Below are positions 1,587-17,294 of a DNA stretch of 17,604 nucleotides, piece after piece; position 1 is the stretch's first letter, and each line of letters begins with the position of its first letter. The DNA lies in the IMG/VR virus record IMGVR_UViG_3300021400_000219, positions 121,970 to 139,573 of that record; one strand, 5' to 3'. This stretch comes from a virus. The translations under genes and the position numbers were made by a program. Under the pieces are notes generated by a model. It was not told the origin of the DNA, made no database searches, and worked only from the letters and a program-made list of their open reading frames with translations.

Positions 1587-1713
1587 AATTATAGTATAAC
1601 AGATAGGGCCGTATTTGTCAAGGGGTTTTTGAAAAAAATTTAATGGAATTTTCTGGAAGTTGCGCCCGGGCGCGTTAGCCTAAGCTAACTCCCAGATAAA
1701 GGGAAAGCGGGGA

Positions 1714-2082
1714 TTACTCCCCGCTAACCGCCTTGAAATAGGTGGTGCGCTTCTCCTGCACCTTCTCCACAGTGCCAGCCTCAACCATCTGCCGAAGCAG
1801 AGCCGAAGCCCACTGGGAGGACTTGCCAAAGTTGGCACCCACATCCTTAGCCTGCCGCAGGAGGTTGGGGTCCTCCATCAGGAAATCCAGAATCTGGACC
1901 TTGAACCCCTCGTTCTCCAGCTGCTTCTTGGAAGGCTTGCGCTCACCCTTGGAGCTGTTGCGCTTCTGGTAAGAAGCCTTGCAAGCCTCCAGCTTCTCCA
2001 CAACCTCAGCATCGAAGTTGTTGCGGGACAGGAAGTCAATGGCGGAAGTCAGAGCGTCCACATAAGTCATCTTGGTAGCCAT
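1714..2082 (-). CDS. Family A winged-helix-like DNA-binding protein, paralog 1 of 4 (122 aa)
   Basis: ORF-track frame. The C-terminal 60 aa read as helix-turn-helix plus wing (ILDFL...SQWASALLRQMVEAGTVEKVQEKRTTYFKA). An SD site (AGAAAGGA) sits 8 nt before the ATG. The TAA stop lies in the loop of the AGCGGGGA/TCCCCGCT hairpin. Two promoters lie upstream. Confidence 0.75.
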   Translation of the reverse strand: MATKMTYVDALTSAIDFLSRNNFDAEVVEKLEACKASYQKRNSSKGERKPSKKQLENEGFKVQILDFLMEDPNLLRQAKDVGANFGKSSQWASALLRQMVEAGTVEKVQEKRTTYFKAVSGE

Positions 2083-2132
2083 AGTATCAATCCTTTCTGG
2101 TTTGGGAGGTTTTCCTTCCTCTTTATGTATTT

Positions 2133-2161
2133 ATTGTATCACAGGTTTGAGGGTTTGTCAA
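2133..2161 (-). promoter_or_regulatory. Proximal promoter TTGACA-17-TGnTACAAT for family A gene 1714..2082. A distal TTGACT-17-TATACT promoter lies at 2233-2261
   Basis: Consensus hexamers and an extended -10 TG. Confidence 0.6.
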
Positions 2162-2321
2162 GACCTTTTTTTGATTTTTTTGAAAATCTTTTTTCGGCCT
2201 TGGCCGTTGTCCCTCTCCCTTGGAACAATTATAGTATAGCAGAAGGGGGGCCAAAAGTCAATTACAAAGTAGAAACAAAATGGTTACAATTTGGTTACAG
2301 GCGCCCGGGCGGAAAACTGCA

Positions 2322-2597
2322 TCAAGCGTGATGCAATTTTCCATCAACGACATAAGTTATACTTTCAAGGCCATCATACTCATCAATTTCCCAGTCGGTA
2401 CAGTTGTCAGGAAGGTCTACCATCACAAGGTTTGCGGTGTAGCCAGAAATATCTTTAGAACCATACTCGTGCATTAACATGATTAAACGCTCATCAGTGC
2501 GTTCAATCATGGCGTAAGGATGTTTCAGACCCAGCTTGTTACAAGCCATAGGAGAAAGAGAAAAACCACCATAGCATTTATTCAACACAATCTTCAT
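2322..2597 (-). CDS. Hypothetical protein (91 aa)
   Basis: ORF-track frame. GAAGGAGGT sits 8 nt before the ATG. Promoter TTGACT-17-TATATT at 2629-2657. Confidence 0.7.
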   Translation of the reverse strand: MKIVLNKCYGGFSLSPMACNKLGLKHPYAMIERTDERLIMLMHEYGSKDISGYTANLVMVDLPDNCTDWEIDEYDGLESITYVVDGKLHHA

Positions 2598-2698
2598 TTG
2601 AAGTTACCTCCTTCGTTTCTGTAATTATAATATACCACAGTATTCGCTAATAGTCAAGTTACATTTTGGTTACAGAAATGCCCGGGCGCTTCACTGCG

Positions 2699-2839
2699 CT
2701 AAAGCAGTGAAGAACGCCATTTTATTTTCCAGCAATACCAAAACTTAAAAATATTATACGGTTTTACCCCCATCAAATACGCCCCCTTTTTATGCACTTT
2801 ATACGCATCAAAAAACTTTCTTTCAATAATCTTTCTCAT
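2699..2839 (-). CDS. Small hypothetical protein (46 aa, MRKIIERKFFDAYKVHKKGAYLMGVKPYNIFKFWYCWKIKWRSSLL). Probably translationally coupled to the upstream exonuclease gene
   Basis: Not in the ORF track because it is under 60 aa. The ATG lies 4 nt after the exonuclease TAA, with AAGGGGGAA 8 nt upstream. The TAG stop sits in the loop of the CTTCACTGC/GCAGTGAAG hairpin immediately before GCCCGGGCG, which matches the cassette rule seen elsewhere. Confidence 0.4.
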   Translation of the reverse strand: MRKIIERKFFDAYKVHKKGAYLMGVKPYNIFKFWYCWKIKWRSSLL

Positions 2840-2843
2840 TTAT

Positions 2844-3536
2844 TTATTCCCCCTTTAGAGCCTTTCTATAAACCTGAACTTTACGCCAGCAATTATAAGA
2901 AATAGAATCATCAAAATCAAGGCCAGATTTAATAATTTTCATGTAAATCTGTCTTTCAATGTCCACATCTTCAAGCCCTGTATGTTCTTCAATAAAATCA
3001 GTATTATTAGTGATAAATCTATACGCAATTTCTGCGCTAGTTTGTACGTTGCCACAATCAGAAATAAATCCGTTGCGTTCTGCATAGTTAATAAAAGCGG
3101 GGGTTTTCAAAATAGAACTGCAAGCCATGTTCCAGATGCAAAAATATTCAGTATTATAAGGGAAAAACCAGCGGATAAAAGAACAAGTGATAAAACGTGC
3201 ATCATTATTTGTGGCCCGCTTGTCAAAGCCCATATTATACGCCCCTACTTTATAGGCGTTATACTCTCTCATGTCCGCCCACAAAATACGCCGAATATTT
3301 AACAGCTTTTTCAGGGTTCTTTTACCCTCTTTAATCTGCTCCCAATACTGCGGAATCTTTTCCGCAAAATAAGCGTTCTGCATCATTTCCTTATCAAGGA
3401 AAATTTCAGCCACAACGAAAGAACGCTCGACCAAAATCTCACCAGTGGTATTATCCACAATCTGGTAGCCCACATCATAGGGCAAAGGCTGTTCCACACA
3501 GTTGGCAGTCTCAGTATCAATAATCAGAATATTCAT
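2844..3536 (-). CDS. DEDDh-family (DnaQ-like) 3'-5' exonuclease (230 aa)
   Basis: Exo I motif ILIIDTETAN near the N-terminus and an H-x4-D motif (EHTGLEDVD) near the C-terminus. I set the start to the ATG at 3534-3536, which is preceded by GGGAATTGATACT. The N-terminal extension in the track is a translated promoter and leader. Promoter TTGCAA-16-TATAAT at 3592-3619. Confidence 0.65.
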   Translation of the reverse strand: MNILIIDTETANCVEQPLPYDVGYQIVDNTTGEILVERSFVVAEIFLDKEMMQNAYFAEKIPQYWEQIKEGKRTLKKLLNIRRILWADMREYNAYKVGAYNMGFDKRATNNDARFITCSFIRWFFPYNTEYFCIWNMACSSILKTPAFINYAERNGFISDCGNVQTSAEIAYRFITNNTDFIEEHTGLEDVDIERQIYMKIIKSGLDFDDSISYNCWRKVQVYRKALKGE

Positions 3537-3699
3537 AGTATCAATTCCCTTCTTTTTTTTCTTGGGGTTTCTGACCCCCTCAACAATTATTATTATAGCA
3601 GGTTTTTTGAAAATTGCAAGATGGTAAATTGCACAAAATGCGCAGGTAGTTTTTGTGCAAAATGCCGGGGCGCCCGGGCGGGAGTTAGCCGCAGCTAAC

Positions 3700-3834
3700 T
3701 CACCATGTATGCGTGTCAATGTATTCCACAAAATACCATGCAGGCATACAAAGATAATAAATACCTAACAGAAACAGGGCCGCAATAAGCTTAAAGGGAA
3801 ACAGAATATAATTTTTAATACGCTTTTTATTCAT
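3700..3834 (-). CDS. Small predicted membrane protein (44 aa, MNKKRIKNYILFPFKLIAALFLLGIYYLCMPAWYFVEYIDTHTW)
   Basis: I translated it by hand; it is under the track threshold. AAAGGA sits 9 nt before the ATG. One hydrophobic transmembrane-like segment. The TGA stop directly abuts the GTTAGCCGCAGCTAAC palindrome and GCCCGGGCG. Confidence 0.45.
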   Translation of the reverse strand: MNKKRIKNYILFPFKLIAALFLLGIYYLCMPAWYFVEYIDTHTW

Positions 3835-3878
3835 TTTTATTTATCCTTTCTTTTGGAATAATAGGGGGCTTGCGCCCC

Positions 3879-4229
3879 CTACTTTCTTTTTTGCGTCAAT
3901 GTCAACTCAAACTTCTTTCCGTCAACCTCAAAAGCAATAACTCTTTCCTTGTTAGTGATTTCAAGGTTATCAACGGAGTTAGTCAGAAAGTTAGCAATTT
4001 CCGCAATCAAATGGCCTTTGGTTTCGTTGGGTTTTCTTTCCCTTTTGGTGAATTTGTAAGCCGTAGGCTTTCTGTCTGCCTGCCTTGCTTTCTTTTCCAC
4101 CTTTTTCTGTTCAGCCGTCAAGGGGAACGGGTCTGCGCCCTTGTCGATTTCTTTATCAGTGGCAATGATTTCCATCGCTTCCTGTTCAGAAATATCAAGG
4201 ACTTTCATCAGTCTTTCCTTTTGGTTCAT
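3879..4229 (-). CDS. Family B protein, paralog 1 of 2 (116 aa), adjacent to a family A gene
   Basis: Start set to the internal ATG (codon 27 of the track ORF), which is preceded by AAGGGGTGATACC and promoter TTGACT-17-TATAAT at 4254-4282. Paralog of 9262..9615 with a shared KK..RQADRKP motif. The TAG stop is part of the TAGGGGGC/GCCCCCTA hairpin. Confidence 0.7.
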   Translation of the reverse strand: MNQKERLMKVLDISEQEAMEIIATDKEIDKGADPFPLTAEQKKVEKKARQADRKPTAYKFTKRERKPNETKGHLIAEIANFLTNSVDNLEITNKERVIAFEVDGKKFELTLTQKRK

Positions 4230-4253
4230 GGTATCACCCCTTCCTTGATTATT

Positions 4254-4282
4254 ATTATAAGGGATAGAGGGCCAAAAGTCAA
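4254..4282 (-). promoter_or_regulatory. Promoter TTGACT-17-TATAAT for family B gene 3879..4229
   Basis: Consensus hexamers. It is flanked upstream by two GTTAG/CTAAC palindromes and CCCGGG. Confidence 0.6.
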
Positions 4283-4363
4283 GATAAATTTGTTCGTCAA
4301 TTTGCACAAAAGTGGTTAGTATAGGCTAACCGCACCCGGGAGAGTTAGTGTGCGCTAACTTCC

Positions 4364-4392
4364 AGAAAAAGGAAAAGGCCCCACATGGGGCC
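4364..4392 (-). terminator. Intrinsic terminator after family A gene 4399..4761
   Basis: GGCCCCauguGGGGCC followed by UUUUCCUUUUUCU. Confidence 0.65.
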
Positions 4393-4398
4393 TAATCC

Positions 4399-4761
4399 TC
4401 AAATGTCCATGGCCTTGAAGTAGGTGACACGCTTGTCAACATACTTGTCAACCATGCCGTTGAGATACAGGGTGCGGAGCAGACCGCTCACCCGCTGGCT
4501 GGTAGCATCTGCCAGCTCAGGCACCCCAGCGCAAATCTCAGAGATGCGGAAACCCTTGTCCGAATCATCCCGCAGGAAATCCAGAATCTTGGAGCGAATG
4601 GCATCGTTTTCCACCTGCTTGGCGGAAGGCTTGCGCTCAGCCGTGGACTTCTTGGCAAAGCCCTCGGCAATCTTTTCCAGCTTCTCCCGCAGGGCAGTTT
4701 CCTCAGCAGGGACGAAAGTCAGGGCCATCTCAATAGCAGTCTTATTAGTCAGCTTAGTCAT
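4399..4761 (-). CDS. Family A winged-helix-like DNA-binding protein, paralog 2 (120 aa)
   Basis: Start set to the ATG at 4759-4761, preceded by AGTGAGTGATACT; the identical context occurs at paralog 4. Promoter TTGACA-17-TATAAT at 4831-4859, with a second promoter TTGCAA-16-TATAAT at 4961-4988. A strong intrinsic terminator (GGCCCCatgtGGGGCC plus UUUUCCUUUUUCU) follows directly after the TGA. Confidence 0.75.
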   Translation of the reverse strand: MTKLTNKTAIEMALTFVPAEETALREKLEKIAEGFAKKSTAERKPSAKQVENDAIRSKILDFLRDDSDKGFRISEICAGVPELADATSQRVSGLLRTLYLNGMVDKYVDKRVTYFKAMDI

Positions 4762-5037
4762 AGTATCACTCACTTTCTCCGTTTTAACGAGTTCGGCTCT
4801 CAATCTTTTGTTTTCCTTTACTGTACTTGTATTATAGCACAGCTTGGGGAGTTTGTCAAGAGGTTTTGAAAACTTTTTTCGGATTATTTTACACCGACCA
4901 TTAACTCTCAAGGAGTGGCTCTCTTTCGCTCGCCGTCCCCAACCCCTCTTGACATTTATTATTATAGCAGATTTCTCCCAAATTGCAAGATGGGATTTTG
5001 CACAAATTAGATTAACTTCTTTTGGTTAAAATGTCAA

Positions 5038-5066
5038 TAGACAAGCGCATGTTTTTGTGATAAAAT
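5038..5066 (+). promoter_or_regulatory. Plus-strand promoter TAGACA-17-TGaTAAAAT. It fires convergently toward the 3' end of gene 5171..5458 and into GC-rich element A
   Basis: Hexamers and spacing. A TTGCACAA box sits upstream, and a divergent minus promoter (TTGCAA-16-TATAAT at 4961-4988) sits back-to-back with it. Confidence 0.45.
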
Positions 5067-5069
5067 TAG

Positions 5070-5145
5070 TGGGGGGTCTGCGCGCGGCGGCACCGGCCGT
5101 TATCGGGACGCGCGTGTGTGTGCGTGTGTCGCTTTAAAGAGCTAA
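5070..5145 (+). repeat. GC-rich element A, with alternating purine-pyrimidine runs: GCGCGCG...CCGGCCGTTA...CGCGCGTGTGTGTGCGTGTGTCGC...CTTTAAAG..CTAAAG
   Basis: One of five related copies. The others are at about 1085-1215, 10410-10480, 14045-14125 and 16950-17040. Each ends in CCCGGG or the gene-end hairpin. Confidence 0.55.
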
Positions 5146-5170
5146 AGCGCCCGGGAGAGTTAGCGAGGGC

Positions 5171-5458
5171 TTACCCCTCGCTCGTATCTACTCCCAGAAT
5201 AATCAACAGACTACAGATAGTGCCCCACGCATGGACGCCCATGTCCTCAGGGATTGCATCCCACACATCAGGATACAGACGGCGCACACCAGAGAGAAGC
5301 ATCCCGCCCCAGTTACCACCGCAAGCGGTACACAAGTCAAGGAAATCTTTAAAACTCATTTTAGTTTTCTGCGCCATGCACGCATAGACAACAACTTCAT
5401 CGCCCCACTCGTTCCGCACAGTATCAAGGGCTTCCATGAAATCAGAATGAAGAATCAT
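5171..5458 (-). CDS. Hypothetical protein (95 aa)
   Basis: Its start overlaps the stop of the upstream small basic gene (ATGA overlap at 5455-5458), with AAAGGAG 8 nt upstream. The TAA stop is in the loop of the CGAGGG/CCTCG hairpin. Confidence 0.65.
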   Translation of the reverse strand: MILHSDFMEALDTVRNEWGDEVVVYACMAQKTKMSFKDFLDLCTACGGNWGGMLLSGVRRLYPDVWDAIPEDMGVHAWGTICSLLIILGVDTSEG

Positions 5459-5601
5459 CTTGCACACTCCTTTCTCAAATCAGCTTTCAGATGGTGGCGA
5501 GCCATCCGCCGACAACTTCTCTTAATGTTTCTGTTGGAATAGGAATCAGTCCAGTAACGCCCACGGCGCAGACCCACACTCTTAGCCTTGAAGTTATTCA
5601 T
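5455..5601 (-). CDS. Small, very basic protein (48 aa, R/K-rich), possibly nucleic-acid binding
   Basis: Internal ATG of track ORF 5455..5673, preceded by AGAGGGAGGAA. Promoter TTGACA-17-TATACT at 5632-5660. First gene of a two-gene operon. Confidence 0.55.
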   Translation of the reverse strand: MNNFKAKSVGLRRGRYWTDSYSNRNIKRSCRRMARHHLKADLRKECAR

Positions 5602-5716
5602 TGCTTTGTTCCTCCCTCTTGGATTGTCTATAGTATAGCAGATAATCAGGGATTTGTCAATACTTTTGGACAAAAAAGTTTAAGGAAATATTTTCCAGGG
5701 CCCGGGCACTTGGAAA

Positions 5717-5995
5717 TTACTCCCAAGTCCCTTCCAGATAAAGCTGGATAATTCTAGTAGCCATTTTCTTGGGCTCCAGCATAGTCACGTCATCCTCATC
5801 CCAAGGGAACTGATAGGATTCAACCATTCCCTTGTCACTCCCATAGGTACCAGCATGACAAGCAACATCACCTTCATGCCAAGGGAAACGCAACTGCATC
5901 CCTTCAAAAATAGGATTAACAGTGAAAGGAACGCTTGCAAAAGTCAGGCAGGCAATCACAGCATTAATAGCATCAGTATACTTGTTAGTGAACAT
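5717..5995 (-). CDS. Hypothetical protein (92 aa)
   Basis: Start at the ATG at 5993-5995, preceded by AAAGGAGGAA. Promoter TTGACA-17-TACAAT at 6026-6054 with a short conserved leader (GACTACAGTAAAACAAAGGAGG). The TAA stop is in the loop of the ACTTGG/CCAAGT hairpin. Confidence 0.7.
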   Translation of the reverse strand: MFTNKYTDAINAVIACLTFASVPFTVNPIFEGMQLRFPWHEGDVACHAGTYGSDKGMVESYQFPWDEDDVTMLEPKKMATRIIQLYLEGTWE

Positions 5996-6025
5996 TTTTT
6001 GTTCCTCCTTTGTTTTACTGTAGTC

Positions 6026-6054
6026 ATTGTACCACATGGTAAAGCATTTGTCAA
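6026..6054 (-). promoter_or_regulatory. Promoter TTGACA-17-TGgTACAAT with an upstream UP-like element (AATTCCATTAAATTTTTTTGAAAAA)
   Basis: Hexamers and spacing. The same roughly 50-bp upstream module recurs at 1625-1665, 6583-6635, 7351-7395, 8589-8633 and 9181-9225. Confidence 0.65.
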
Positions 6055-6115
6055 TAGGTTTTTCAAAAAAATTTAATGGAATTTTTTTCCAGTTACCCGG
6101 GCGTGTGCTGGAAAT

Positions 6116-6295
6116 TTATTCCAGCACTTCCACCTCTTCCCAATCCCAAAACTCTTCATTAGGATTCCAGAATGTGGCAAAATCATCACATTCATCAATG
6201 GCAGAAACTCCCAGTTTACAGCGTCCATCCTTTTCCCAGTAGGGACAATCCCAGCCGTTGACAGTGCAGTAAATAACCATTCTTTTTTCTTTCAT
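6116..6295 (-). CDS. Small Cys-rich acidic protein (59 aa, C-x6-C-x8-C-x9-C), possibly metal-binding
   Basis: Under the track threshold. Its ATG overlaps the TGA of gene 6292..6504 as an ATGA overlap. GGAAAGTGATACA sits before the ATG. The TAA stop is in the loop of the GCTGGAA/TTCCAGC hairpin next to CCCGGGCG. Confidence 0.5.
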   Translation of the reverse strand: MKEKRMVIYCTVNGWDCPYWEKDGRCKLGVSAIDECDDFATFWNPNEEFWDWEEVEVLE

Positions 6296-6504
6296 TGTAT
6301 CACTTTCCTTTCTTCAAGTTCACAATCTTCACGAGTCATTAGATAATCAAACTCTTTCAAGCACTCATAGTTTCCCGCAAGCGCATACTCTACAATATCT
6401 CTTGCAGTAGTCCAAGCAATGTAGTTTTCAGCATCGCAATGGTCAATCCTTGCATCAAAGATGTGGCGCAGGGTATCCACAATTTCAGACGAGATAATAT
6501 ACAC
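6292..6504 (-). CDS. Hypothetical protein (70 aa, GTG start)
   Basis: ORF-track frame. GGAAGGTGATACATT precedes the GTG. Promoter TTGACA-17-TATACT at 6554-6582 with the conserved leader UUGUUCCAAGGGAAGG. Confidence 0.55.
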   Translation of the reverse strand: MYIISSEIVDTLRHIFDARIDHCDAENYIAWTTARDIVEYALAGNYECLKEFDYLMTREDCELEERKVIQ

Positions 6505-6647
6505 AATGTATCACCTTCCTATTGGATTTGTTTCCTTCCCTTGGAACAACTATAGTATAGCACAGCAGAGGGTCTTTGTCAATACTAAATTGAAAAAAAT
6601 TTGATGGAATTTTTGGAAATGTTTTCCAGTGCCCGGGTGATGGTGAC

Positions 6648-6827
6648 TTAGTCACCATCCCTTTCTTCAAATTCACATACAGGACAAATAAAATCTCTAA
6701 AGTCTTCCTCTTCCCAATCAGATTCATAGATAGGCTCGCCGCACTCGGGACAATTATAAAATCGTTCATCCCAATTTACGAAACCGCCGAATACATTTTC
6801 AACAATCTTTGCATTCAGTTCCCACAT
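6648..6827 (-). CDS. Small zinc-ribbon-like acidic protein (59 aa, CPEC...CPVC, D/E-rich C-terminus)
   Basis: Internal ATG of track ORF 6648..6908, preceded by AAGGAGGT with 7 nt spacing. That SD site overlaps the stop of the upstream 34-aa peptide gene. The TAA stop is in the loop of the GGTGAC/GTCACC hairpin. Confidence 0.6.
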   Translation of the reverse strand: MWELNAKIVENVFGGFVNWDERFYNCPECGEPIYESDWEEEDFRDFICPVCEFEERDGD

Positions 6828-6840
6828 GGAATTTACCTCC

Positions 6841-6945
6841 TTACCAACCAAAAATCCGAGAGAGTATAACAAGTATTGCATCAAATACAGCTCCAATACC
6901 AATGGCACCCATAATCATCCAAAATAAAACATCCATGTCTTTCAT
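6841..6945 (-). CDS. Tiny hydrophobic membrane peptide (34 aa, MKDMDVLFWMIMGAIGIGAVFDAILVILSRIFGW)
   Basis: Hand translation. GAGGGAGGT sits 6 nt before the ATG. Promoter TTGACT-16-TATACT at 6975-7002 sits immediately upstream with no other ORF available. Single transmembrane segment. Confidence 0.45.
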   Translation of the reverse strand: MKDMDVLFWMIMGAIGIGAVFDAILVILSRIFGW

Positions 6946-7041
6946 GTTATTACCTCCCTCATTTCTGTAATTATAGTATACCACAAATTATCCAAAAGTC
7001 AAGTTACAATTTGGTTACAAACACCCGGGCGCGAAGGTGAC

Positions 7042-7281
7042 TTAGTCACCCTCATTCGTCTTCATTGGAAACAGGTCGTCCAGATTGGTAACACCTGGAA
7101 TAAATTCAGTAATAAAAGAAAAAGGTCTTGCTTCTGCCAATTCTACGTTGTCAATGTCCCACACATCATCAAAGGCTTCTTCGCACGGCGGGCGTAATCC
7201 CTTCCAAAATTTGGTTTCTGCTTCCTCTGCGGTTTCCGCTTCAATCATGCAATAACCAGAAAAATCAATGTACCATTTCAT
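7042..7281 (-). CDS. Small highly acidic protein (79 aa), candidate DNA-mimic or anti-defence protein
   Basis: ORF-track frame. AAAGGAG sits 9 nt before the ATG. Promoter TTGACA-17-TATACT at 7322-7350. The TAA stop is in the loop of the same GGTGAC-tta-GTCACC hairpin used by 6648..6827. Confidence 0.7.
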   Translation of the reverse strand: MKWYIDFSGYCMIEAETAEEAETKFWKGLRPPCEEAFDDVWDIDNVELAEARPFSFITEFIPGVTNLDDLFPMKTNEGD

Positions 7282-7321
7282 TAGATGATACTCCTTTCAT
7301 TTCTTTTCTTAGGTTGAGTAT

Positions 7322-10888: not shown

Positions 10889-10891
10889 TTA

Positions 10892-11725: not shown

Positions 11726-11765
11726 TTTTTTATTCTCCTTTCTTTTGGCGTATTCTTTCGGGGTT

Positions 11766-11927
11766 TTATCCCCGAAAGATAACATTTCCAGAGAGGTTAT
11801 TTACAAGCTTGACAGGCTCGTTTTTAACCATGGCCAGGGTTTCGGCCAGAATCTTAATGGCCCGCAGGTCATTCATAGAGGAAACGGGGGTCTTGCCCAC
11901 GTAGATGGTAAACAGAGTGATATTCAT
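11766..11927 (-). CDS. Small hypothetical protein (53 aa)
   Basis: Internal ATG, preceded by AAGGAGGT 7 nt upstream. Promoter TTGACA-17-TATAAT at 11960-11988. The TAA stop is in the loop of the 10-bp stem TCTTTCGGGG/CCCCGAAAGA. Confidence 0.55.
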   Translation of the reverse strand: MNITLFTIYVGKTPVSSMNDLRAIKILAETLAMVKNEPVKLVNNLSGNVIFRG

Positions 11928-12046
11928 TGAAGTTACCTCCTTATTCATTTCGTACCCTTATTATAAGCGATGTTTTGCGATTTGTCAAGGGGTTTATGCG
12001 ATTTTTCTTCTGGAATTTTTTGGTTATGGCGCCCGGGTGGCTGGCC

Positions 12047-12490
12047 TTACCCGATATGGGCGGCCAGCCAAGCCAGCATCTTTTTGCTTTCTTTAGCGCA
12101 CCGGATTTTCATCCCGCCGCCGTTCTTCTGGCTTTCCCGCTCGGTCTTGCAGAACTCGGTGCAGAAGGCGGTGAACTCGTCCCGGTTCATCATATAGACC
12201 TGATAATCGGCGGTAACGTAGGCCCAGAGGTTGCTGTGGGTGCGCTCCATATAGAGGGCCCAGATTTCATCATAAGTTTCCCGGCCTTCGCACAGGGTGG
12301 CGCTCATAAGGGTGAAGGCAGAAGCCTTGACGGAGATGAGCATTTCACCAAGCTCGATATCAGAGCCTTTGTCATATGCACCGCTATCATGGGTGGTGCG
12401 GTCGATGCCCATATAGTGGCACAGATCGTGCTCACGGGCAATGCCCTTATTAGTAGCGGGGGAAACGTGGTCAATCTTGAAGGTCTTCAT
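12047..12490 (-). CDS. Hypothetical protein (147 aa)
   Basis: Start at the ATG at 12488-12490, preceded by AGGAAAGGGAG. Promoter TTGACT-17-TATACT at 12522-12550. The TAA stop is in the loop of the GGCTGGCC/GGCCAGCC hairpin. The overlapping plus ORF 11927..12523 is rejected. Confidence 0.65.
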   Translation of the reverse strand: MKTFKIDHVSPATNKGIAREHDLCHYMGIDRTTHDSGAYDKGSDIELGEMLISVKASAFTLMSATLCEGRETYDEIWALYMERTHSNLWAYVTADYQVYMMNRDEFTAFCTEFCKTERESQKNGGGMKIRCAKESKKMLAWLAAHIG

Positions 12491-12726
12491 CTGAAGCACT
12501 CCCTTTCCTTAGGATGGTTATAGTATAGCACCATTCCCCGGGATAGTCAATACAAAATCGCAAATTTCCCCTTGTGCAAATTATACAAATGTTGGAGCGG
12601 ATTTTTGGGGGCTGTTGTGCAAGTTGCACAATTAGTGTAACCTGGGTCACATTAAAAGTAACAAAAGAGTTACAATCTCTAACAATCAATTACAATCTTT
12701 TTTTTACTTTCAAAACACTTTTTTTA

Positions 12727-12911
12727 AGTTAGCAGTTAGCAAAGGGTAATGCTAGTTAGCACAAGCTAATTGTTGTTAGTTCGAACTAACTCCGGTTAGC
12801 AGGGACTAACTGGAGTTAGCCTAGGCTAACTTTAGCACACTAAAGCTGTAGCGATTTAGCGAACTAAAGTGCGCCGGACCTGGCAATTTGAACAATTAGC
12901 GGCTGCTAACT
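12727..12911. repeat. Array of eight short palindromes of the GTTAGC-N4-6-GCTAAC or TTTAG-N4-CTAAA type
   Basis: Read directly from the sequence: AGTTAGCAGTTAGCA, TTAGCacaaGCTAA, GTTAGTTCGAACTAAC, GGTTAGcagggaCTAAC, AGTTAGCCTAGGCTAACT, CTTTAGcacaCTAAAG, TTTAGcgaaCTAAA, TTAGCggctGCTAA. The same palindrome type sits at nearly every gene junction. Confidence 0.7.
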
Positions 12912-13169
12912 TTGTGCATTTTGACGAGGTTTCGGGATTCGTCAAGTTGCACAAAAATGTAACCAAATTGTAACCAAAATTTGTGCAATTTGACGGTGGC
13001 GCGAACTCGGCTGCCAACGACTGCGCTGGGCCACAGTGCACTCGTTGGCGGCCGGTTCGTCATTTTGCACAAATGCGTGCGTGCGAGGGGCCTTAACTTT
13101 ATGCATTATGACGAAAAAAAATTTTTGTGCAAAATGACGAATCAAATCCTGATTCGTCAAAATGCACAA

Positions 13170-13463
13170 AAAAAGAGGCATTGCCCGGCCTCATCGGGGG
13201 GAAGCTTGACGCCCTTCCCTGGCGGTGGTGTCCACTTTCGGGGACACGCCCGGCTCCGTTTGCTAGCCGCAGGAGCGTCGCGGCGCTGGGGTCGTTCCCT
13301 TGCCCCTTGGGGAACTTGATGGCCTCCATTTCTATCCCGCGGCCTTGGGGGCGGCCTAGCTACTTTGTGGGGAGTATCGCCCACGTTTCGCCGACGCGGC
13401 TGGGATTTTGGTGTCATCGCGCATCCCGTGCGCTCAAGAGGGACAAGTCAACCTCTTTTCTAT
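13170..13463 (-). ncRNA. Candidate GC-rich structured non-coding RNA of about 290 nt
   Basis: Promoter TTGACA-17-TATAAT at 13470-13498 on the minus strand. Intrinsic terminator GAGGC-N8-GCCUC followed by U7, at 13167-13192 in plus coordinates. GC content is far above the window average. There is no SD site and no conserved ORF. It contains a GTGTCCCC-GAAA-GTGGACAC tetraloop hairpin and a GUGGGCGAUACUCCCCAC hairpin. Confidence 0.45.
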
Positions 13464-13540
13464 GGTCTTATTATAGCACCCGCAAGGGGTTTTGTCAAGG
13501 GTTTTTTCTTTTTTTTTTTTTGTTCCCGGAGGGCCGGGGC

Positions 13541-13699
13541 TTAGTAGCCCCAGCCGATGGAGGTTACCCTCCATCCCTCCTCCCGCAGTGCGGGATAAAG
13601 GGCGGCGAAACTCGCCAACCCGTGTTCCCACACACGGGACTCACAGGCCCACAGGCCAGTGAAGAGGTTCCGATGGAACCGGATGTATTCAATTTTCAT
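13541..13699 (-). CDS. Small hypothetical protein (52 aa, W-rich)
   Basis: Internal ATG of track ORF 13541..13816, preceded by AAAGGAGGT. Promoter TTGACA-17-TATAAT at 13720-13748 with the conserved leader GATTACAGTAAAACAAAGGAGG. The TAA stop is in the loop of the GGGGCT/AGCCCC hairpin. Confidence 0.55.
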   Translation of the reverse strand: MKIEYIRFHRNLFTGLWACESRVWEHGLASFAALYPALREEGWRVTSIGWGY

Positions 13700-13759
13700 G
13701 GAAGTGACCTCCTTTGTTTTACTGTAATCATTATAGCAGACCCGCCCGGGTTTGTCAAC

Positions 13760-13925
13760 CCTTTTTTTCATTTTTTTTATTTTTTTTTGGTTCCCCATAC
13801 CCCTCCGGGGAACCACTGGCCGGCTATTTTTTACCTCCCGCCCTAGGGGGTGGCCCTTGGTACTTTGTGGGGTATCTTGCCCACGTTTCCCAGAGGGAGG
13901 GCCCGGAGGGTTTCCCCTCCTGACA
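13760..13925 (-). ncRNA. Second GC-rich non-coding segment, a partial paralog of the 13170-13463 RNA
   Basis: It shares about 30 nt with the other RNA (GAAACGUGGGC.AGAUAC.CCCACAAAGUA). It lies downstream of a weaker promoter, TAGACT-17-TATTAT, at about 13930-13960. It ends in the hairpin GGUUCCCC...GGGGAACC, followed by an A-rich run rather than a U-run. Confidence 0.3.
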
Positions 13926-14007
13926 TGATTATAATACCACAGGCCCGGCTAAAAGTCTATTGACAAATCTCACAAATCGGGATGTTCTATTTTGTGCATT
14001 TTTACTC

Positions 14008-14037
14008 TTGACAGCCGAGCCTATTTTGTGGTATAAT
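14008..14037 (+). promoter_or_regulatory. Plus-strand promoter TTGACA-18-TGgTATAAT, transcribing into GC-rich element B
   Basis: Near-consensus hexamers. The conserved upstream sequence GCATTTTTACTCTTGACA is shared with the promoter at 16916. Confidence 0.55.
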
Positions 14038-14138
14038 ATTTCTGTACTGCCTGCGCGCGCGGTCGCCGGCCGTTAGCGGGGGCTAACTGTGCCTGGGTGT
14101 GCGCCTTTATTGCAATAAAGCACTAAAGTGCACAAGGG

Positions 14139-14171
14139 CAAAAAACTACGAGGATTTTTTAATCCTCGTAG
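14139..14171 (-). terminator. Intrinsic terminator overlapping the stop codon of 14159..14290
   Basis: CUACGAGGAU-UAA-AAAAUCCUCGUAG followed by UUUUUUG. The stop codon is in the loop. Confidence 0.65.
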
Positions 14172-14290
14172 TCAATGGCGATGACCTTCCAGCCCTTGGG
14201 CGGTTCGTAGTTTTCCGGCAGGCCCTTCCAGAGAATCAATTCAGTATCGGCCCACTCTCCATCAATCTTTCTGATTTCAATGCTCCACAT
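14159..14290 (-). CDS. Small hypothetical protein (43 aa)
   Basis: Internal ATG of track ORF 14159..14383. Promoter TTGACA-17-TATAAT at 14343-14371 and a leader of the AAUCAGAAAGAGGGAAGGAAAACC type. The TAA stop is in the loop of terminator ACGAGGAU/AUCCUCGU, followed by UUUUUUG. Confidence 0.5.
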   Translation of the reverse strand: MWSIEIRKIDGEWADTELILWKGLPENYEPPKGWKVIAIDYED

Positions 14291-14385
14291 AATCTTTTTT
14301 CCTTTCTGGTTTGTTAGGTTTTCCTTCCCTCTTTCTGATTGTATTATAGCAGACTCAACCGGGTTTGTCAACCCCTTTTTCAAAT

Positions 14386-14529
14386 TTATTTAATTCTTTT
14401 TACTTTGATAACCTTAGCCCCAGAGTATTCAGCTTTTCCCTCTTTCAGAAATTTGCGGTTAGGATTGACAAGGGTGATGGTAGATTCTTCGCCGCAAAGG
14501 CTGATGGTAATTTCATAAATCTTTTTCAT
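14386..14529 (-). CDS. Small hypothetical protein (47 aa)
   Basis: Hand translation. Promoter TTGACA-17-TATAAT at 14563-14591 has no other ORF downstream of it. GGAAAGGAAA sits before the ATG. Confidence 0.4.
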   Translation of the reverse strand: MKKIYEITISLCGEESTITLVNPNRKFLKEGKAEYSGAKVIKVKRIK

Positions 14530-14609
14530 TTTTTTTCATTTCCTTTCCTTTTTTCTGTCTTTATTATAGCATCGGCCGGGCGATTTGTCAACCCCTTTTT
14601 TGAAATTTT

Positions 14610-14756
14610 TTAGGGAAATTTATCTCTCCCTAAAAAACAATCCCGCATAAATTCCAACTGTTCCAGAGAAAAGCGGGCCGCAAATTGTGCGGGCGTCTCT
14701 TCAAAGAGATGGTATCCGTTGGCAACCATTTCCATTACAACTTCCAGCTTTTTCAT
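14610..14756 (-). CDS. Small hypothetical protein (48 aa)
   Basis: Internal ATG, preceded by AAAGGAGGAA. Promoter TTGACA-16-TATAAT at 14787-14814. The N-terminal WYNKGTKTKEE in the track is a translated -10 element and leader. Confidence 0.55.
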   Translation of the reverse strand: MKKLEVVMEMVANGYHLFEETPAQFAARFSLEQLEFMRDCFLGRDKFP

Positions 14757-15022
14757 TTTGTGTTCCTCCTTTGTTTTTGTACCTTTATTATACCATACTT
14801 TTGGCAAATGTCAAGACCTTTTTTCAATTTTCTTTTGGTCTTTGCGGGTCCGACCCCCGCACCCTCTGAAGGGCTGTTGTCGGCTTGGAGGTCCTTCCTA
14901 CTGGGACCCCGTCCTTGATTATTATTATAGCAGATAATAGCCAAAAGTCAATTACAAAATGGTTACAATTTTATTTCAGAATGGTTACAATTTGCGCCCG
15001 GGCAAATGGGAAAAAGAGGGAA

Positions 15023-15487
15023 TTACTTCCCTCTCGCCCATGTCAGAACGTCCATAATCATTTCAGGATTGAAGGCCCAACCTTCCATTTCTTCCCACTC
15101 AATCACATTGTTTTCTTCATCGTCAAACAGAATCCCATTTTTCACGGTGGGCACTGTGCTTTTGGGCGTCCCATAGGGAACAATGTTGATTTCATCAAAG
15201 TGAACGCTTGCAAGGTGTTTCTTGAGCCAATTCTTTTTGGCTTCAATAACCTTTTCGTCAAATTCCTTGTTGCTATTCTTAGCTAACCAACTAACTACCC
15301 CGATTGTCCATCCCTTTTTCTGAAGGTTATTCAACCGACGGGCAAGGGCGTTCATGTTTACCAGAGGCTTAGCAACTTCATAGGGGAAGGGATTGTTTTC
15401 CAGTAGATAACCCAGCCAGTTTTCTACGCCGTAGAAGTTGGCGATTGTTCCATCCATGTCAAAGTAGATTGCCCGATTGATTTTCAT
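15023..15487 (-). CDS. HAD-superfamily hydrolase, 5'(3')-nucleotidase-like, paralog 2 (154 aa)
   Basis: IYFDMDGTIANF and GILFDDEE motifs. AAAAGGAG sits 9 nt before the ATG. Promoter TTGACA-16-TATACT at 15519-15546. The TAA stop is in the loop of the GAGGGAA/TTCCCTC hairpin. Confidence 0.75.
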   Translation of the reverse strand: MKINRAIYFDMDGTIANFYGVENWLGYLLENNPFPYEVAKPLVNMNALARRLNNLQKKGWTIGVVSWLAKNSNKEFDEKVIEAKKNWLKKHLASVHFDEINIVPYGTPKSTVPTVKNGILFDDEENNVIEWEEMEGWAFNPEMIMDVLTWARGK

Positions 15488-15590
15488 TTTGTTCAGCTCC
15501 TTTTCTTTTTCTGATTATAGTATACCACAAATTCCGGGATTGTCAAGAGTTTTTTTCAAAAAAATCAAAAAACTTTTTTCAAAAAACCTC

Positions 15591-15619
15591 TTGACAAATT
15601 GAAAAAACTGTGATACAAT
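15591..15619 (+). promoter_or_regulatory. Plus-strand promoter TTGACA-17-TGtGATACAAT, whose transcript starts AAAGGGGGAAUUA followed by U19
   Basis: It sits back-to-back with the minus promoter of HAD gene 2 (15519-15546). The two -35 regions form an inverted repeat, CCTCTTGACAAATT. Confidence 0.55.
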
Positions 15620-15632
15620 AAAGGGGGAATTA

Positions 15633-15651
15633 TTTTTTTTTTTTTTTTTTT
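15633..15651 (+). repeat. Homopolymeric T19 tract at +15 of a plus-strand transcript
   Basis: Counted directly. A second tract, T26, lies at 17475-17500 in the same context. There are also T13 at 13511-13523 and T-runs at 13766-13790. Confidence 0.8.
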
Positions 15652-15705
15652 GGTTAGCTTAGGCTAACTTAGGTTAGTATGTGCTAACTACCCGGGCGCA
15701 AGAAA

Positions 15706-16026
15706 TCAGCCCTTGGGCTGATTCTCGCAAGCCTTTTTATTATTGTTCAGGGTTTTCATTAAAGACTTGGGGCACTTTTCGCAGTTGTGGCAATTCTTGT
15801 AAATGCTGATTCCCTGACTAACAGTTGCGATAAACATTGTTACCAGATTGTTAGTAGTTGCATTGTATACAATCACAATCCCCTTTTCAGTGAGAACAAC
15901 CTTGCCATCGTTGTTGTCGTAGGTTTCTGCGATTGCAGGCCCAAACTCGCCCTTGCAATAGTCGATGATGTAGGAAATTCTTTCCATCCTCTCAACCTTG
16001 GCGTGATAACTGACTTTCTTTGTCAT
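15706..16026 (-). CDS. Hypothetical protein (106 aa) with a C-terminal Cys cluster (CHNCEKC)
   Basis: ATG at 16024-16026, preceded by AAAAGGGG 9 nt upstream. Promoter TTGACA-17-TATACT at 16060-16088. Confidence 0.6.
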   Translation of the reverse strand: MTKKVSYHAKVERMERISYIIDYCKGEFGPAIAETYDNNDGKVVLTEKGIVIVYNATTNNLVTMFIATVSQGISIYKNCHNCEKCPKSLMKTLNNNKKACENQPKG

Positions 16027-16149
16027 TTTTGACAACCCCTTTTCTTATTTTCTGACTAAAGTATAGCACACATTCCCGCAGTTGTCAATACCTTTTTTCA
16101 AATTTTTTCAGATTTTTTTGAACCGGGCGAATGGAAAAAGCTGGAAGTG

Positions 16150-16479
16150 TTACCACTCCCAGCCATCAAACCAACCATCATACCGAACAGAAACAATCTC
16201 ATCGTCATAGATAATGGGGGTATTTCTGTCATACATTACCATTGACACAATGTCACCCACAATCCAGTCACCTTCGCAATCTGTAAAGCACCATTCATTC
16301 CCGTTGAAATCCTTGCAGGTGACAAGTTTGCACTCGTCGTTGATTTCTACTATCACAGTTGTCATTGCATACAGGTTAGCAGTCTTTCCGCTTGCGGCGT
16401 CAGCGTTCACACTTGCGCCGATGCACATACCGCACACCATAACCACCAAAAGAACCATCACACTAATCAGCTTTTTCAT
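16150..16479 (-). CDS. Secreted Cys-rich small protein with an N-terminal Sec signal peptide (109 aa)
   Basis: MKKLISVMVLLVVMVCGMCIGASVNA followed by DAA, which is a typical signal peptide with an AxA cleavage site. AAAGGAGGAAAA sits 6 nt before the ATG. Promoter TTGACA-16-TATAAT at 16510-16537. Confidence 0.7.
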   Translation of the reverse strand: MKKLISVMVLLVVMVCGMCIGASVNADAASGKTANLYAMTTVIVEINDECKLVTCKDFNGNEWCFTDCEGDWIVGDIVSMVMYDRNTPIIYDDEIVSVRYDGWFDGWEW

Positions 16480-16585
16480 TTTGTTTTCCTCCTTTGTTTT
16501 ACTGTAATCATTATACCATACTTTTGGAATTTGTCAAGAGGTTTTTTCAAATTTCCCGGAAAATCTTTTGAGAGGGTTTCCCCTC

Positions 16586-16807
16586 TCAAAAAATGTTTAC
16601 CATTTCAGGCTTTACCATCTCAACAGGAAGGAAACAACCGCTTTTGCAGTAAACTTCTTGTTTCACGTTTCCATCTTTGATAACCAGACGATACACGCCG
16701 CAGGTTCTTCCAGCCGCTTCCATTTTTGCTTGTTTCCAAGCTTTTCCAAAAGCTGCAGTATCCTCAAACTCAAACCCCGCAACCTGATAAACAAACTTCT
16801 TAGCCAT
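16586..16807 (-). CDS. Hypothetical protein (73 aa)
   Basis: AAGGAAAGGGG sits before the ATG. Promoter TAGACA-17-TATAAT at 16840-16868. The TGA stop is inside terminator hairpin TTTTGAGAGGG/CCCTCTCAAAA. Confidence 0.7.
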   Translation of the reverse strand: MAKKFVYQVAGFEFEDTAAFGKAWKQAKMEAAGRTCGVYRLVIKDGNVKQEVYCKSGCFLPVEMVKPEMVNIF

Positions 16808-16915
16808 TTTAATGACCCCTTTCCTTAATTTCTATATTTATTATAGCATCCTGTAAGCTATTTGTCTATTGGTAAATTGCACAAAAAAGTTTTTGATTTT
16901 TGGGCATTTTTACTC

Positions 16916-16944
16916 TTGACATTCGCTGTAAATTGTGGTAAAAT
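16916..16944 (+). promoter_or_regulatory. Plus-strand promoter TTGACA-17-TGgTAAAAT, transcribing into GC-rich element C
   Basis: Hexamers and spacing. An upstream TTGCACAA box lies at about 16877-16884. Confidence 0.55.
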
Positions 16945-17046
16945 AAAATGGGGAGCTGTTGTTCGCGCGCGCCGAAGGCCGTTAGCGGCCGCTAACCGGG
17001 TGTGCGTGTGCGCACCTTTATAGCTTTAATGGGTTAAAGTAACCGG

Positions 17047-17076
17047 GTAAAAAAGAGAAGGACTTTTCAGTCCTTC
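17047..17076 (-). terminator. Intrinsic terminator overlapping the stop codon of 17067..17294
   Basis: GAAGGACU-GAAA-AGUCCUUC followed by UCUUUUUUACC. The stop TGA is in the loop. Confidence 0.65.
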
Positions 17077-17294
17077 ATCCCCATTTCTACGAAAACTTCA
17101 AAGCCTTCAAAGTAGTAAGTCCGCCATTCGCCTTCAAATTCAATTTCTTCCCGCTCCGCCATTTCAGACAGAACTACTTCAACTTCCTGCAAGGCCCGCC
17201 ATTCTGCAGCATCACCATCAAACCGAACTGCTACAACACCATCTTCAAACTCAACCTCAAAAGCTTCCAGCATTTCAAGAATCATTTCTAACAT
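17067..17294 (-). CDS. Small extremely acidic protein (75 aa, about one third E/D), candidate DNA-mimic or anti-restriction-like protein
   Basis: AGAAAGGAAA sits before the ATG. Promoter TTGACT-16-TATACT at 17347-17374. The TGA stop is in the loop of terminator GAAGGACU/AGUCCUUC, followed by UCUUUUUUACC. Confidence 0.7.
   Translation of the reverse strand: MLEMILEMLEAFEVEFEDGVVAVRFDGDAAEWRALQEVEVVLSEMAEREEIEFEGEWRTYYFEGFEVFVEMGMKD

Follow-up and report, generated by a model that had tools for sequence, protein, structure and literature searches.

Stop codons lodged in gene-end hairpins of shuffled early-gene cassettes in a large rumen phage

Introduction

PeSL (promoter-early stem-loop) cassettes have been described from the hyperplastic regions of T4-type phages, where crossovers fall within a stem-loop (Arbiol et al. 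2010, PMC2839356; Comeau et al. 2014, PMC4122927), and in phi1 and RB49 this stem-loop is usually found between or over the -35 and -10 boxes of a promoter, or just upstream of them. Excised mini-circles made of a cassette and a chimeric motif also belong to the PeSL type. Here we analyse a 17,604-nt stretch of phage DNA, hereafter the window (positions 121,970 to 139,573 of IMG/VR record IMGVR_UViG_3300021400_000219), in which the stop codons of most small genes lie inside hairpins. The window is part of a 174 kb phage metagenome contig (ENA ERZ28612966, scaffold_111; locus L010, 100% identical). It is an early, hyperplastic region of a large rumen phage, and the feature is a compact variant of PeSL-like cassettes combined with Firmicute-type stop-proximal terminators, not a new kind of system.

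Small genes are also arrayed in integrons, which comprise the tyrosine recombinase IntI, the attI site and the promoter Pc, from which their mostly promoterless cassettes are expressed. The attC site is an imperfect palindrome of 57-141 bp with R''-L''/L'-R' boxes (RYYYAAC ... GTTRRRY) and extrahelical bases.

As regards the position of hairpins at gene ends, B. subtilis terminators are placed a few nt past stop codons, which is explained by transcription that outruns translation (Johnson et al. 2020, as summarised in PMC7858274 and PMC12207403). In E. coli, the ribosome represses almost completely a terminator located a few bp past a stop (PMC4824070), the centres of inverted repeats lie about 25 bp past stops (PMC6060812) and transcript 3' ends 25-75 nt past them (PMC12207403). 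3' stem-loops have been found at both Rho-independent and Rho-dependent transcript ends (PMC13613805).

Results

The window holds 35 curated genes of 34-230 amino acids (aa), every one on the minus strand and arranged head to tail; a single-gene unit consists of an open reading frame (ORF) with a strong promoter of sigma-70 type and a ribosome-binding site (RBS) before it and a hairpin after it. Hairpins with stems of 6 bp or more overlap the stop codon in 24 of the 35 genes, 22 of these stems being formed by Watson-Crick pairs only and two including G.U; the stop lies in the loop in 19 cases and in the stem or at its edge in five, and in 12 genes it is within 2 nt of the hairpin centre. An earlier reading made from the sequence only had put the number of such genes at 20 or more, which agrees with this count, and its five examples were all located to within 1-2 nt (1706-1725, 6642-6656, 7036-7050, 8643-8658 and 14146-14171 in + strand reading). 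Watson-Crick stems of at least 8 bp were found at 16/35 gene stops, compared with 25/932 (2.7%) of the other TAA, TAG and TGA triplets of the same strand, and stems of at least 6 bp at 22/35, compared with 10.8%. Conversely, the whole window contains 24 perfect hairpins with stems of 8 bp or more, and 16 of them coincide with a gene stop. Folding of the sequence around the stops, which the same reading had proposed as a check, gave a mean minimum free energy of -18.6 kcal/mol in 60-nt windows by RNAfold as opposed to -11.4 kcal/mol at random positions (Mann-Whitney p = 2.5e-7), with 20/35 stops at z < -2 relative to dinucleotide shuffles. The sequence-only reading had named two outcomes that would speak against it, hairpins no commoner at stops than elsewhere and homologues devoid of them; the first is contradicted by the excess of long stems at gene stops and the second by the hairpins retained in orthologues. 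The overlap is thus confirmed as conserved and far beyond chance.

Six of the 11 genes without such a hairpin stand directly before the next ORF of the same operon and run straight into it, so the feature is present at almost every transcription-unit end. Two further hairpin-less genes are near cases: gene 12047 (genes are named here by their stop-proximal coordinate unless both ends are given) has its stop in the 15-nt loop of an 8-bp stem, and gene 4399 is followed by a terminator 6 nt downstream. A U-tract accompanies six of the 24 stop hairpins (genes 17067, 16150, 15023, 14159, 7440 and 1714), as well as the terminator after gene 4399, and is absent from the other 18, in line with the earlier remark that only some of the hairpins carry a U-run. 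Three U-less stop hairpins (genes 11766, 9645 and 3879) are intercistronic and no promoter precedes the next gene; lying within one operon, they cannot be efficient terminators. Nearly all stop hairpins differ from one another in sequence, and the Rfam 15 covariance models gave no match on either strand at E <= 0.1.

To which strand the pairing belongs is indicated by the mismatches. Among single mismatches bridging two helices in the stop hairpins, family-wide, G.U outnumbered A.C by 28 to 5 (p = 7e-5), and within the window by about 10 to 2; this asymmetry means that selection for pairing acts on the sense strand rather than on duplex DNA. The loops carry a further signal. The stop occupied tetraloop positions 2-4 in 30/62 cases, and the first loop base was then G in 23 of these 30 (GTAA 20, GTGA 3), so that the stop supplies the NRA of a GNRA tetraloop, of which G-UAA is the commonest loop. 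GNRA accounted for 27/60 stop-overlapping tetraloops, compared with 15/136 among other hairpins; since the 136 hairpins away from stops are not GNRA-rich (15 GNRA vs 8 TYNC), the signal is specific to loops that contain a stop. TAG, which is unable to complete a GNRA loop, is rare in loops. Judged from these patterns of pairing and loop sequence, the hairpins most likely act on the sense strand as RNA.

The hairpins are kept in relatives. Three loci that are 85-98% identical to the window (L009, L012 and L013) retain the stop hairpins, and in gene 11725-11486 the window has GTTACC...GGTAAC where L012 has GTTAGC...GCTAAC, a double compensatory change that goes with a Thr-to-Ser codon change. 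The close relatives also show three G-C to G.U changes and one change of TAA to TGA within a loop. At greater distance, we assembled 63 non-redundant metagenomic orthologues of the NT5C-like gene (50-75% identity): the stop lies in a perfect hairpin of at least 6 bp in 36/63, and by RNAfold in 48/63 as opposed to 16/63 at a control position 90 nt upstream. Their stems are unrelated in sequence, as in TCAAGGGGAT-GTAAAA, AAAGGCACTT-TAAG, AAAGGGCT-GTAA and CTCAAGGGTC-TGCGTT, and the exonuclease orthologues in L001, L002, L007 and L009 likewise each have a different hairpin of their own over the stop. For 569 ORF stops at 25 related IMG/VR loci, the distance between the stop and the centre of the closest hairpin peaks sharply at 0, with a depletion at -4 to -8 and, at -8 to -20, a broad shoulder where downstream terminators ordinarily lie.

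Immediately after the hairpins lies a second conserved element. The window has 22 copies of CCCGGG (1225..15696), 10 of them as exact GCCCGGGC where 0.23 are expected; the consensus is the symmetric palindrome cGCCCGGGCg. In minus-strand reading the first C is at 15696, 15002, 13750, 12542, 12037, 11470, 10345, 9227, 8635, 8103, 7397, 7029, 6637, 6101, 5706, 5155, 4340, 3678, 2686, 2309, 1670 and 1230. Twenty of the 22 copies start 0-6 nt past a hairpin end (11 nt at one site) and mark where the next operator-promoter module begins, and CCCGGG follows within 16 nt of 12 of the 24 stop hairpins. The motif is confined to the array: all 22 copies lie within its roughly 15 kb, whereas 15 kb of flanking sequence (L036 and L010) has none. 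On the sense strand, the last codons form the 5' arm, the stop lies in the loop and the 3' arm is followed by CCCGGG; beyond this come operator-like repeats (one or two), AT-rich sequence, the -35 box, the -10 box, a leader with RBS and the next ORF. The symmetry of GCCCGGGC argues for its recognition on duplex DNA; a literature search gave no relevant description of it in phages. We also considered GCCCGGGC as a substitute for the U-tract or as the site of a protein roadblock that aids release, and rejected this on geometry, because a polymerase stalled at a protein bound to the motif would have the hairpin still untranscribed and a GC-rich hybrid would oppose release.

Three types of operator-like repeat occur, namely TGGAAAnnnTTTCCA, TGTAACCAAAnTGTAAC and TGTGCAAATTGCACA. 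A generic palindrome, GTTAGC-N4-GCTAAC, which itself carries TAG and TAA, occurs in 17 copies with at most one mismatch (0.01 expected), and in combination with CCCGGG it was found in 21 stretches of large IMG/VR contigs; an exact-pattern scan of IMG/VR for CCCGGG together with the TGGAAAA...TTTCCA operator gave no match. About eight stop hairpins are recognisable derivatives of the generic palindrome (genes 8650, 3700, 5171, 8118, 11486, 1714, 9262 and 2699). The genes 1714, 4399 and 7440, which encode winged helix-turn-helix (wHTH)-like proteins, have their own U-tract terminator and, in addition, a separate GTTAGC-N4-GCTAAC just before CCCGGG.

Alignment of the window to L009, L012 and L013 located the junctions at which their mosaic sequences change. 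Eight or nine fall at the CCCGGG edge, about nine at the RBS/ATG, about four in the -35 or -10 hexamers and one or two in a hairpin loop right after the stop. For example, beyond CCCGGG the gene and hairpin 7281-7042 are joined to different operator-promoter modules in the window and in L012, and the same ORF module occupies another position in L013, which in turn lacks the cassette 2686-2309 by a gap that runs exactly from CCCGGG to CCCGGG. The exonuclease gene has three different downstream sequences joined right after its stop: in L009 it ends GGGGGAA-TAAAT-TTCCCCC followed by T7, and in the window and L012 two different ORFs are fused right after the TAAAT. From the junction positions, two kinds of module assort independently, the ORF with its hairpin and the unit of GCCCGGGC, operators, promoter and leader. 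Each ORF therefore moves with its own hairpin, and modules are joined at short conserved sequences. P-nucleotide-like palindromes, as would arise from hairpin opening at cassette ends, were considered and rejected, the loops being non-palindromic and often of odd length (TAA, GTAA).

Gene by gene, in the direction of transcription and all on the minus strand, the hairpins are as follows. Gene 17294-17067 ends with TGA at the intrinsic-terminator-like hairpin GAAGGACT-GAAA-AGTCCTTC (17057..17076), and the TGA of gene 16807-16586 lies in the 5' arm of an 11-bp hairpin with a GAAA loop (16566..16591). The TAA of gene 16479-16150 is in the GUAA loop of an 11-bp hairpin with two G.U pairs (16139..16164), and the TGA of gene 16026-15706 in the 3' arm of an 8-bp hairpin (15704..15723) with CCCGGG 6 nt on. 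The NT5C-like gene 15487-15023 has its TAA in the GUAA loop of an 8-bp hairpin (15015..15034), a predicted terminator. Then come the TAA of gene 14756-14610, with a hairpin of up to 14 bp including G.U (14603..14621) that the next promoter abuts; that of gene 14290-14159, at the stem/loop edge of a 12-bp hairpin (14145..14172) followed by T6, a canonical intrinsic terminator; and that of gene 13699-13541, under a hairpin of 10 bp with one G.U (13536..13551). In gene 12490-12047 the 8-bp stem GGCTGGCC/GGCCAGCC (12039..12069) encloses the TAA, and CCCGGG stands 1 nt on. The TAA of gene 11927-11766 is in a 10-bp hairpin with the loop AUAAAA (11754..11779), after which the RBS and ATG of gene 11725-11486 follow; this gene in turn ends with TAA in an 11-bp derivative of the GTTAGC palindrome (11473..11498), GCCCGGGC being 2 nt on. 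The wHTH-like gene 10031-9645 has its TAA in an 8-bp hairpin (9638..9656) before gene 9615.

Gene 8940-8650 has its TAA in the loop of the generic palindrome GGAGTTAGC-UAAU-GCTAACTCC (8640..8661), GCCCGGGC following 4 nt on, and the TAA of gene 8495-8118 lies in the loop of a 7-bp hairpin (8110..8128) whose 3' arm runs into GCTAACTC and then CCCGGG. The wHTH-like gene 7805-7440 ends with TAA in a 9-bp hairpin with a GUAA loop (7431..7452), its separate GTTAGC palindrome lying at 7401-7416 and CCCGGG at 7392-7397. The hairpin GGTGAC-UAA-GTCACC of gene 7281-7042 (7036..7050) reaches 10 bp with G.U, CCCGGG being 2 nt past the extended stem, and gene 6827-6648 stops in GATGGTGAC-UAA-GTCACCATC (6639..6659) with CCCGGG 1 nt on. 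GGTGAC-TAA-GTCACC ends both of these genes, whose proteins have no detectable similarity and both end in Gly-Asp, which suggests either a shared 3' module or convergence. Further on are a 9-bp hairpin with the loop UAAAU at the stop of gene 6295-6116 (6105..6127; CCCGGG 3 nt on), a 9-bp hairpin with two G.U pairs and the loop UAA at that of gene 5995-5717 (5708..5728; GCCCGGGC 1 nt on) and an 8-bp hairpin with the loop GUAAG in gene 5458-5171 (5162..5182), of which the 3' arm again runs into GCTAACTC and then CCCGGG. In gene 4229-3879 the TAG forms the first three stem nucleotides of an 8-bp hairpin with a GCAA loop (3862..3881), before gene 3834-3700, whose TGA overlaps the first bases of the generic palindrome GAGTTAGC-UGCG-GCTAACTC (3682..3701; GCCCGGGC 3 nt on). 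The TAG of gene 2839-2699 is in the loop of a 9-bp hairpin (2689..2712; GCCCGGGC 2 nt on) and the TGA of gene 2597-2322 in the 3' arm of a hairpin with a 7-bp core, 15 bp with G.U (2318..2335), which GCCCGGGC abuts. The wHTH-like gene 2082-1714 stops in AGCGGGGA-GUAA-TCCCCGCT (1706..1725), which has a U-rich tail and is followed by the generic palindrome at 1674-1689 and GCCCGGGC at 1664-1671.

The array carries 31 near-consensus sigma-70/sigma-A promoters, TTGACA-N16-18-TGnTATAAT, on the minus strand (1591..17374), about one per gene or short operon, and its intergenic repeats fall into families of 40-87 nt with 9-20 copies each. A Pfam and PHROGs scan of 30 of the 35 window proteins returned mostly ORFans. 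The non-ORFans are two NT5C-like nucleotidases, a DEDD-like exonuclease and four paralogues of about 120 aa, which we label wHTH-like after weak PHROGs matches to MarR-type and other transcriptional regulators. These four (1714-2082, 4399-4761, 7440-7805 and 9645-10031, minus strand) share 36-74% identity and may be the cognate regulators of the operator-like repeats; their number is about that of the operator-like repeat classes between GCCCGGGC and the -35 boxes, namely TGGAAA..TTTCCA, GTAACC repeats, GTGCAA..TTGCAC and GTTAGC..GCTAAC. The two NT5C-like 5'-deoxyribonucleotidase genes (15023-15487 and 10892-11341, minus strand) are 64% identical, and the latter directly precedes a 50-aa ORF. 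The exonuclease is 41% identical to that of Enterococcus phages of about 140 kb, the best isolated relatives. Promoter and RBS type, taken with these relatives, are suggestive of a Firmicute host and of a phage that is large and virulent.

The cassette array has a GC content of 40-47%, compared with 28-36% in the flanking phage DNA (L036 and L010), where one gene carries a YonG_N domain. A megablast search with the entire window gave no match among 50,697 phage records, a PHROGs scan of flanking genes indicated no phage family, a tRNA scan of the window found none, and no recombinase, integrase, HUH nuclease or hairpin-acting nuclease was among the 30 scanned window proteins and five right-flank proteins, in an analysis that covered about 33 kb of the 174 kb contig and a minority of the flank ORFs.

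Several stretches of the window are free of genes (about 370-1700, 10100-10740 and 12540-13540). On the + strand, perfect sigma-70-type promoters at 14008-14140, 16916-17050 and 5038-5160 each precede a conserved GC-rich unit of about 100 nt, GGGG..CTGCGCGCG..CCGGCCGTTAGCGGGGGCTAAC..GCGTGTGCG..GCTTTAAAG..CCGGG, with related patches at 10380-10480 and 920-1160; these units, which are without an Rfam match, are candidate small RNAs convergent with the gene array. Strong minus-strand promoters without an ORF are found at 1621, 2261, 10253, 13498, 13959 and 14951, several sharing the leader AATTGTTCCAAGGGAGAGGG and GC-rich structured sequence, and may represent non-coding RNAs or cassette remnants. 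The gene-free segment 12560-13160 contains palindromes of every operator-like class of the array, with at least four tandem GTTAGC-N4-GCTAAC, TTTAGC..CTAAAG, TTGTGCAACTTGCACAA, repeats of GTAACCAAA and TGACGAATC..GATTCGTCA; it is about 90% conserved in L012 and looks like a cluster of predicted protein-binding sites. At 15627-15652 and 17466-17500 the + strand has 20-26 consecutive T (A in the direction of the genes), directly behind + strand promoters and a GGGGGA motif. Between 380 and 930, where GC content is 30%, there are three copies of a 42-nt repeat, each with a weaker promoter-like site, TTGATT-N17-TATAAT, and no ORF behind it.

Discussion

The array resembles PeSL cassettes in its intergenic modules of about 100 bp, which have a strong sigma-70-type early promoter, an AT-rich upstream sequence and flanking small ORFans, and in that indels and replacements among relatives end inside the modules, here at CCCGGG, RBS/ATG, promoter hexamers and hairpin loop, the junction of the exonuclease gene lying within the hairpin loop itself. 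It differs in that the nearest isolates are the Enterococcus phages and not T4-like. A stable stem-loop is present as well, at 24 gene ends, but it lies over the last codons and stop of the preceding gene, upstream of the promoter. In the window the -35 box is 20-60 nt downstream of the hairpin, and GCCCGGGC and operator-like repeats stand between the two, whereas in Enterococcus phage H1 (L041, OP534061.1 92990-111646; for example at locus positions 2124, 3514 and 5244) the loop of the hairpin is itself the next promoter's -35 hexamer, the TGA inside TTGACA serving as the stop, a design more compressed than that of the window. Enterococcus phage EF1 likewise has its stops in hairpins. The hairpin is moreover specific to the gene and outside the repeated module, and the extra palindrome GCCCGGGC and several classes of operator-like repeat intervene between hairpin and promoter.

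With the stop-proximal terminators of B. subtilis and other bacteria with runaway transcription, the window shares a hairpin within the ribosome footprint of the stop (PMC7858274, PMC12207403), although here the stop is centred in the loop, often within GNRA, and three quarters of the hairpins lack a U-tract. Set beside the E. coli and B. subtilis baselines, a stop within the hairpin itself goes beyond both. The likeness to integrons consists in the array of small single-gene cassettes, a boundary structure of variable sequence beside a short conserved core and precise deletion from boundary to boundary; however, the hairpins are of 15-28 nt, mostly perfect and without attC boxes, the stem does not include the core GCCCGGGC, every cassette is equipped with a consensus promoter, junctions also fall at RBS/ATG and promoters, and no integrase was found among the scanned proteins. 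Lambdoid morons are similarly autonomous single-gene units with their own promoter and terminator, but they are isolated and without conserved flanks, whereas here dozens stand head to tail with shared boundary modules. In contrast to REP/BIME elements, where one palindrome family recurs in many near-identical copies just past stop codons, the stop hairpins form no near-identical family, only the generic GTTAGC-N4-GCTAAC element being repeated. In the literature searched we found no description of the stop-in-GNRA-loop register or of the GCCCGGGC boundary motif.

We consider it reasonably probable that the hairpins are RNA 3' stem-loops of self-contained, shuffled early-gene units, some acting as terminators and the U-less ones as attenuators or stabilisers. 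Nearly every small gene is then its own transcription unit, with a strong sigma-A-type promoter, RBS, ORF and 3' stem-loop. The 5' arm is made of the last 2-4 codons of the gene, with a non-coding 3' arm that co-evolves with it, and the stop is held in the loop, most often as the UAA of a G-UAA GNRA tetraloop. About a quarter of the hairpins, those with a U-tract, would be ordinary intrinsic terminators, and the U-less ones are most likely partial terminators (attenuators, insulators) and protectors of the 3' end of the upstream message; such a mixture is suggested by the six hairpins with a U-tract and the three that are intercistronic. A stop inside the hairpin could be tolerated where RNA polymerase outruns the ribosome, as for Bacillus, and we infer such uncoupling of transcription and translation in a Firmicute host; the design would fit an uncoupled host because a terminator this close to the stop is repressed by the ribosome in E. 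coli and is explained by runaway transcription in B. subtilis. The ORF and its hairpin would constitute the minimal self-sufficient module, ending 0-6 nt before the GCCCGGGC that opens the next operator-promoter module, and related phages would shuffle the modules by recombining at short shared sequences (GCCCGGGC, RBS/ATG and promoter hexamers). RNase III processing, which is reportedly found in SP82 early mRNA, was also considered, for which the predicted stems of 7-12 bp appear short.

Taken together, the two interpretations offered by the sequence-only reading are partly supported. One was that the hairpin might couple translation stop to transcription termination or 3'-end stability; of this, a function at the RNA level is supported by the G.U bias, the GNRA loops, the compensatory change and the conservation in homologues, and canonical terminators make up only a quarter of the hairpins. 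Its other suggestion, that the hairpin belongs to a mobile unit within which the gene simply ends, is largely supported, in that ORF and hairpin move as one, GCCCGGGC closes the unit and about eight hairpins derive from the generic palindrome; most hairpins, however, are no shared pre-existing element and consist of the gene's own codons, in a stem of its own with a co-varying 3' arm.

A number of points weigh against the explanation that we prefer. With 18 of the 24 hairpins U-less, canonical termination is no general function, and the terminator, attenuator or stabiliser activities are themselves predictions from sequence. The G.U bias is not exclusive to RNA, since in single-stranded DNA, too, G.T wobbles and loops of the GNA/GNRA type are stable, so that sense-strand single-stranded DNA is not strictly separated from RNA as the level of action. 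Selection is not absolute, as two variants in close relatives have C.A disruptions in their stems. Saving of space is a weak reason for the overlap, given the long non-coding stretches of the window. The Firmicute host is itself something we infer, as suggested by promoters, RBS and relatives, and the explanation accounts neither for the role of GCCCGGGC nor for the GTTAGC palindrome at genes that already have a terminator.

Inverted repeats of short length abound, 10% of all bases lying in some hairpin of at least 6 bp, but the excess of stems of at least 8 bp at gene stops, the z-scores relative to dinucleotide shuffles and the conservation across about 100 related loci leave an artefact of chance or composition with practically no credibility. 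It is instead conceivable, though fairly unlikely, that the overlap was selected as a coupling device and not merely tolerated: a ribosome on the loop stop would melt both arms, so that translated messages read through into the next cassette and untranslated ones terminate. Such a translation-gated terminator or insulator would agree with the marked predominance of stops centred in the loop over those in the 5' arm or immediately before the hairpin (offset peak at 0, depletion at -4 to -8), with 3' arms of 7-12 nt that fit inside the ribosome footprint, with the near-complete repression by the ribosome of a terminator just past the stop in E. coli (PMC4824070) and with the persistence of the overlap despite ample non-coding space. 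Yet most hairpins are without a U-tract, each cassette has a strong promoter of its own and needs no read-through for its expression, and in the indicated Firmicute host, where RNA polymerase runs ahead (PMC7858274), the ribosome would come too late to act. That the overlap is functionless, the ORFs, many of them young ORFans, having been fused to a generic boundary hairpin that carries stops and has since drifted in sequence, we regard as distinctly unlikely. Parts of the GTTAGC palindrome are indeed kept in the approximately eight derivatives (TAG in GTTAGC, TAA in GCTAAC), GGTGAC-TAA-GTCACC is common to two unrelated genes and the exonuclease gene is joined to three sequences right past its stop, but most stems are unique and made of the gene's own codons, and entry in a random frame predicts that about two thirds of ORFs stop in the 3' arm or beyond, whereas the loop dominates. 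Furthermore, orthologues of 50-75% identity keep the hairpin over the stop with fully different arms, which requires ongoing selection and suggests that pairing was restored repeatedly and independently.

Finally, the variable hairpin and the conserved GCCCGGGC might together be an attC-like, DNA-level recombination site of a dedicated phage enzyme that recognises a folded single strand or a cruciform, the stop lying in the hairpin since the ORF runs flush into the site, as integron ORFs also end inside attC; this would be an undescribed cassette-exchange system whose cassettes have their own promoters. A hairpin variable in sequence and conserved in structure does stand beside the conserved core at 20/22 sites and also family-wide, cGCCCGGGCg is symmetric as for recognition on DNA and confined to the cassette array, and, with eight or nine junctions exactly at the motif, one cassette was deleted from motif to motif. 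We nevertheless judge this to be quite improbable: no recombinase was among the proteins scanned, as many junctions lie at RBS/ATG and promoter hexamers, which would fit any short shared sequence, and the hairpins are of 17-30 nt without R/L boxes or extrahelical bases, in cassettes with their own promoter. The G.U bias and GNRA preference fit RNA at least as well, and stop-in-loop hairpins are present in relatives that have no CCCGGG, namely L003, L007 and Enterococcus phage H1.

The regular grammar of promoter, RBS, ORF, stop-holding hairpin and GCCCGGGC is common to about 100 metagenomic loci, and it draws attention to GCCCGGGC, a new palindrome in strong excess, and to the operator-like repeats. 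For annotation it provides a rule, applicable to very small phage genes and to the ends of transcription units, by which a gene end is taken as real where the stop lies inside a hairpin capped by G-UAA. The array is also a natural test bed for the encounter of a terminating ribosome with a 3' hairpin that contains its stop. The idea of mobile regulatory cassettes that came from PeSL is here extended beyond T4-type phages. Large virulent phages of gut and rumen Firmicutes have dozens of tiny early ORFans, and the turnover of these shapes host takeover.

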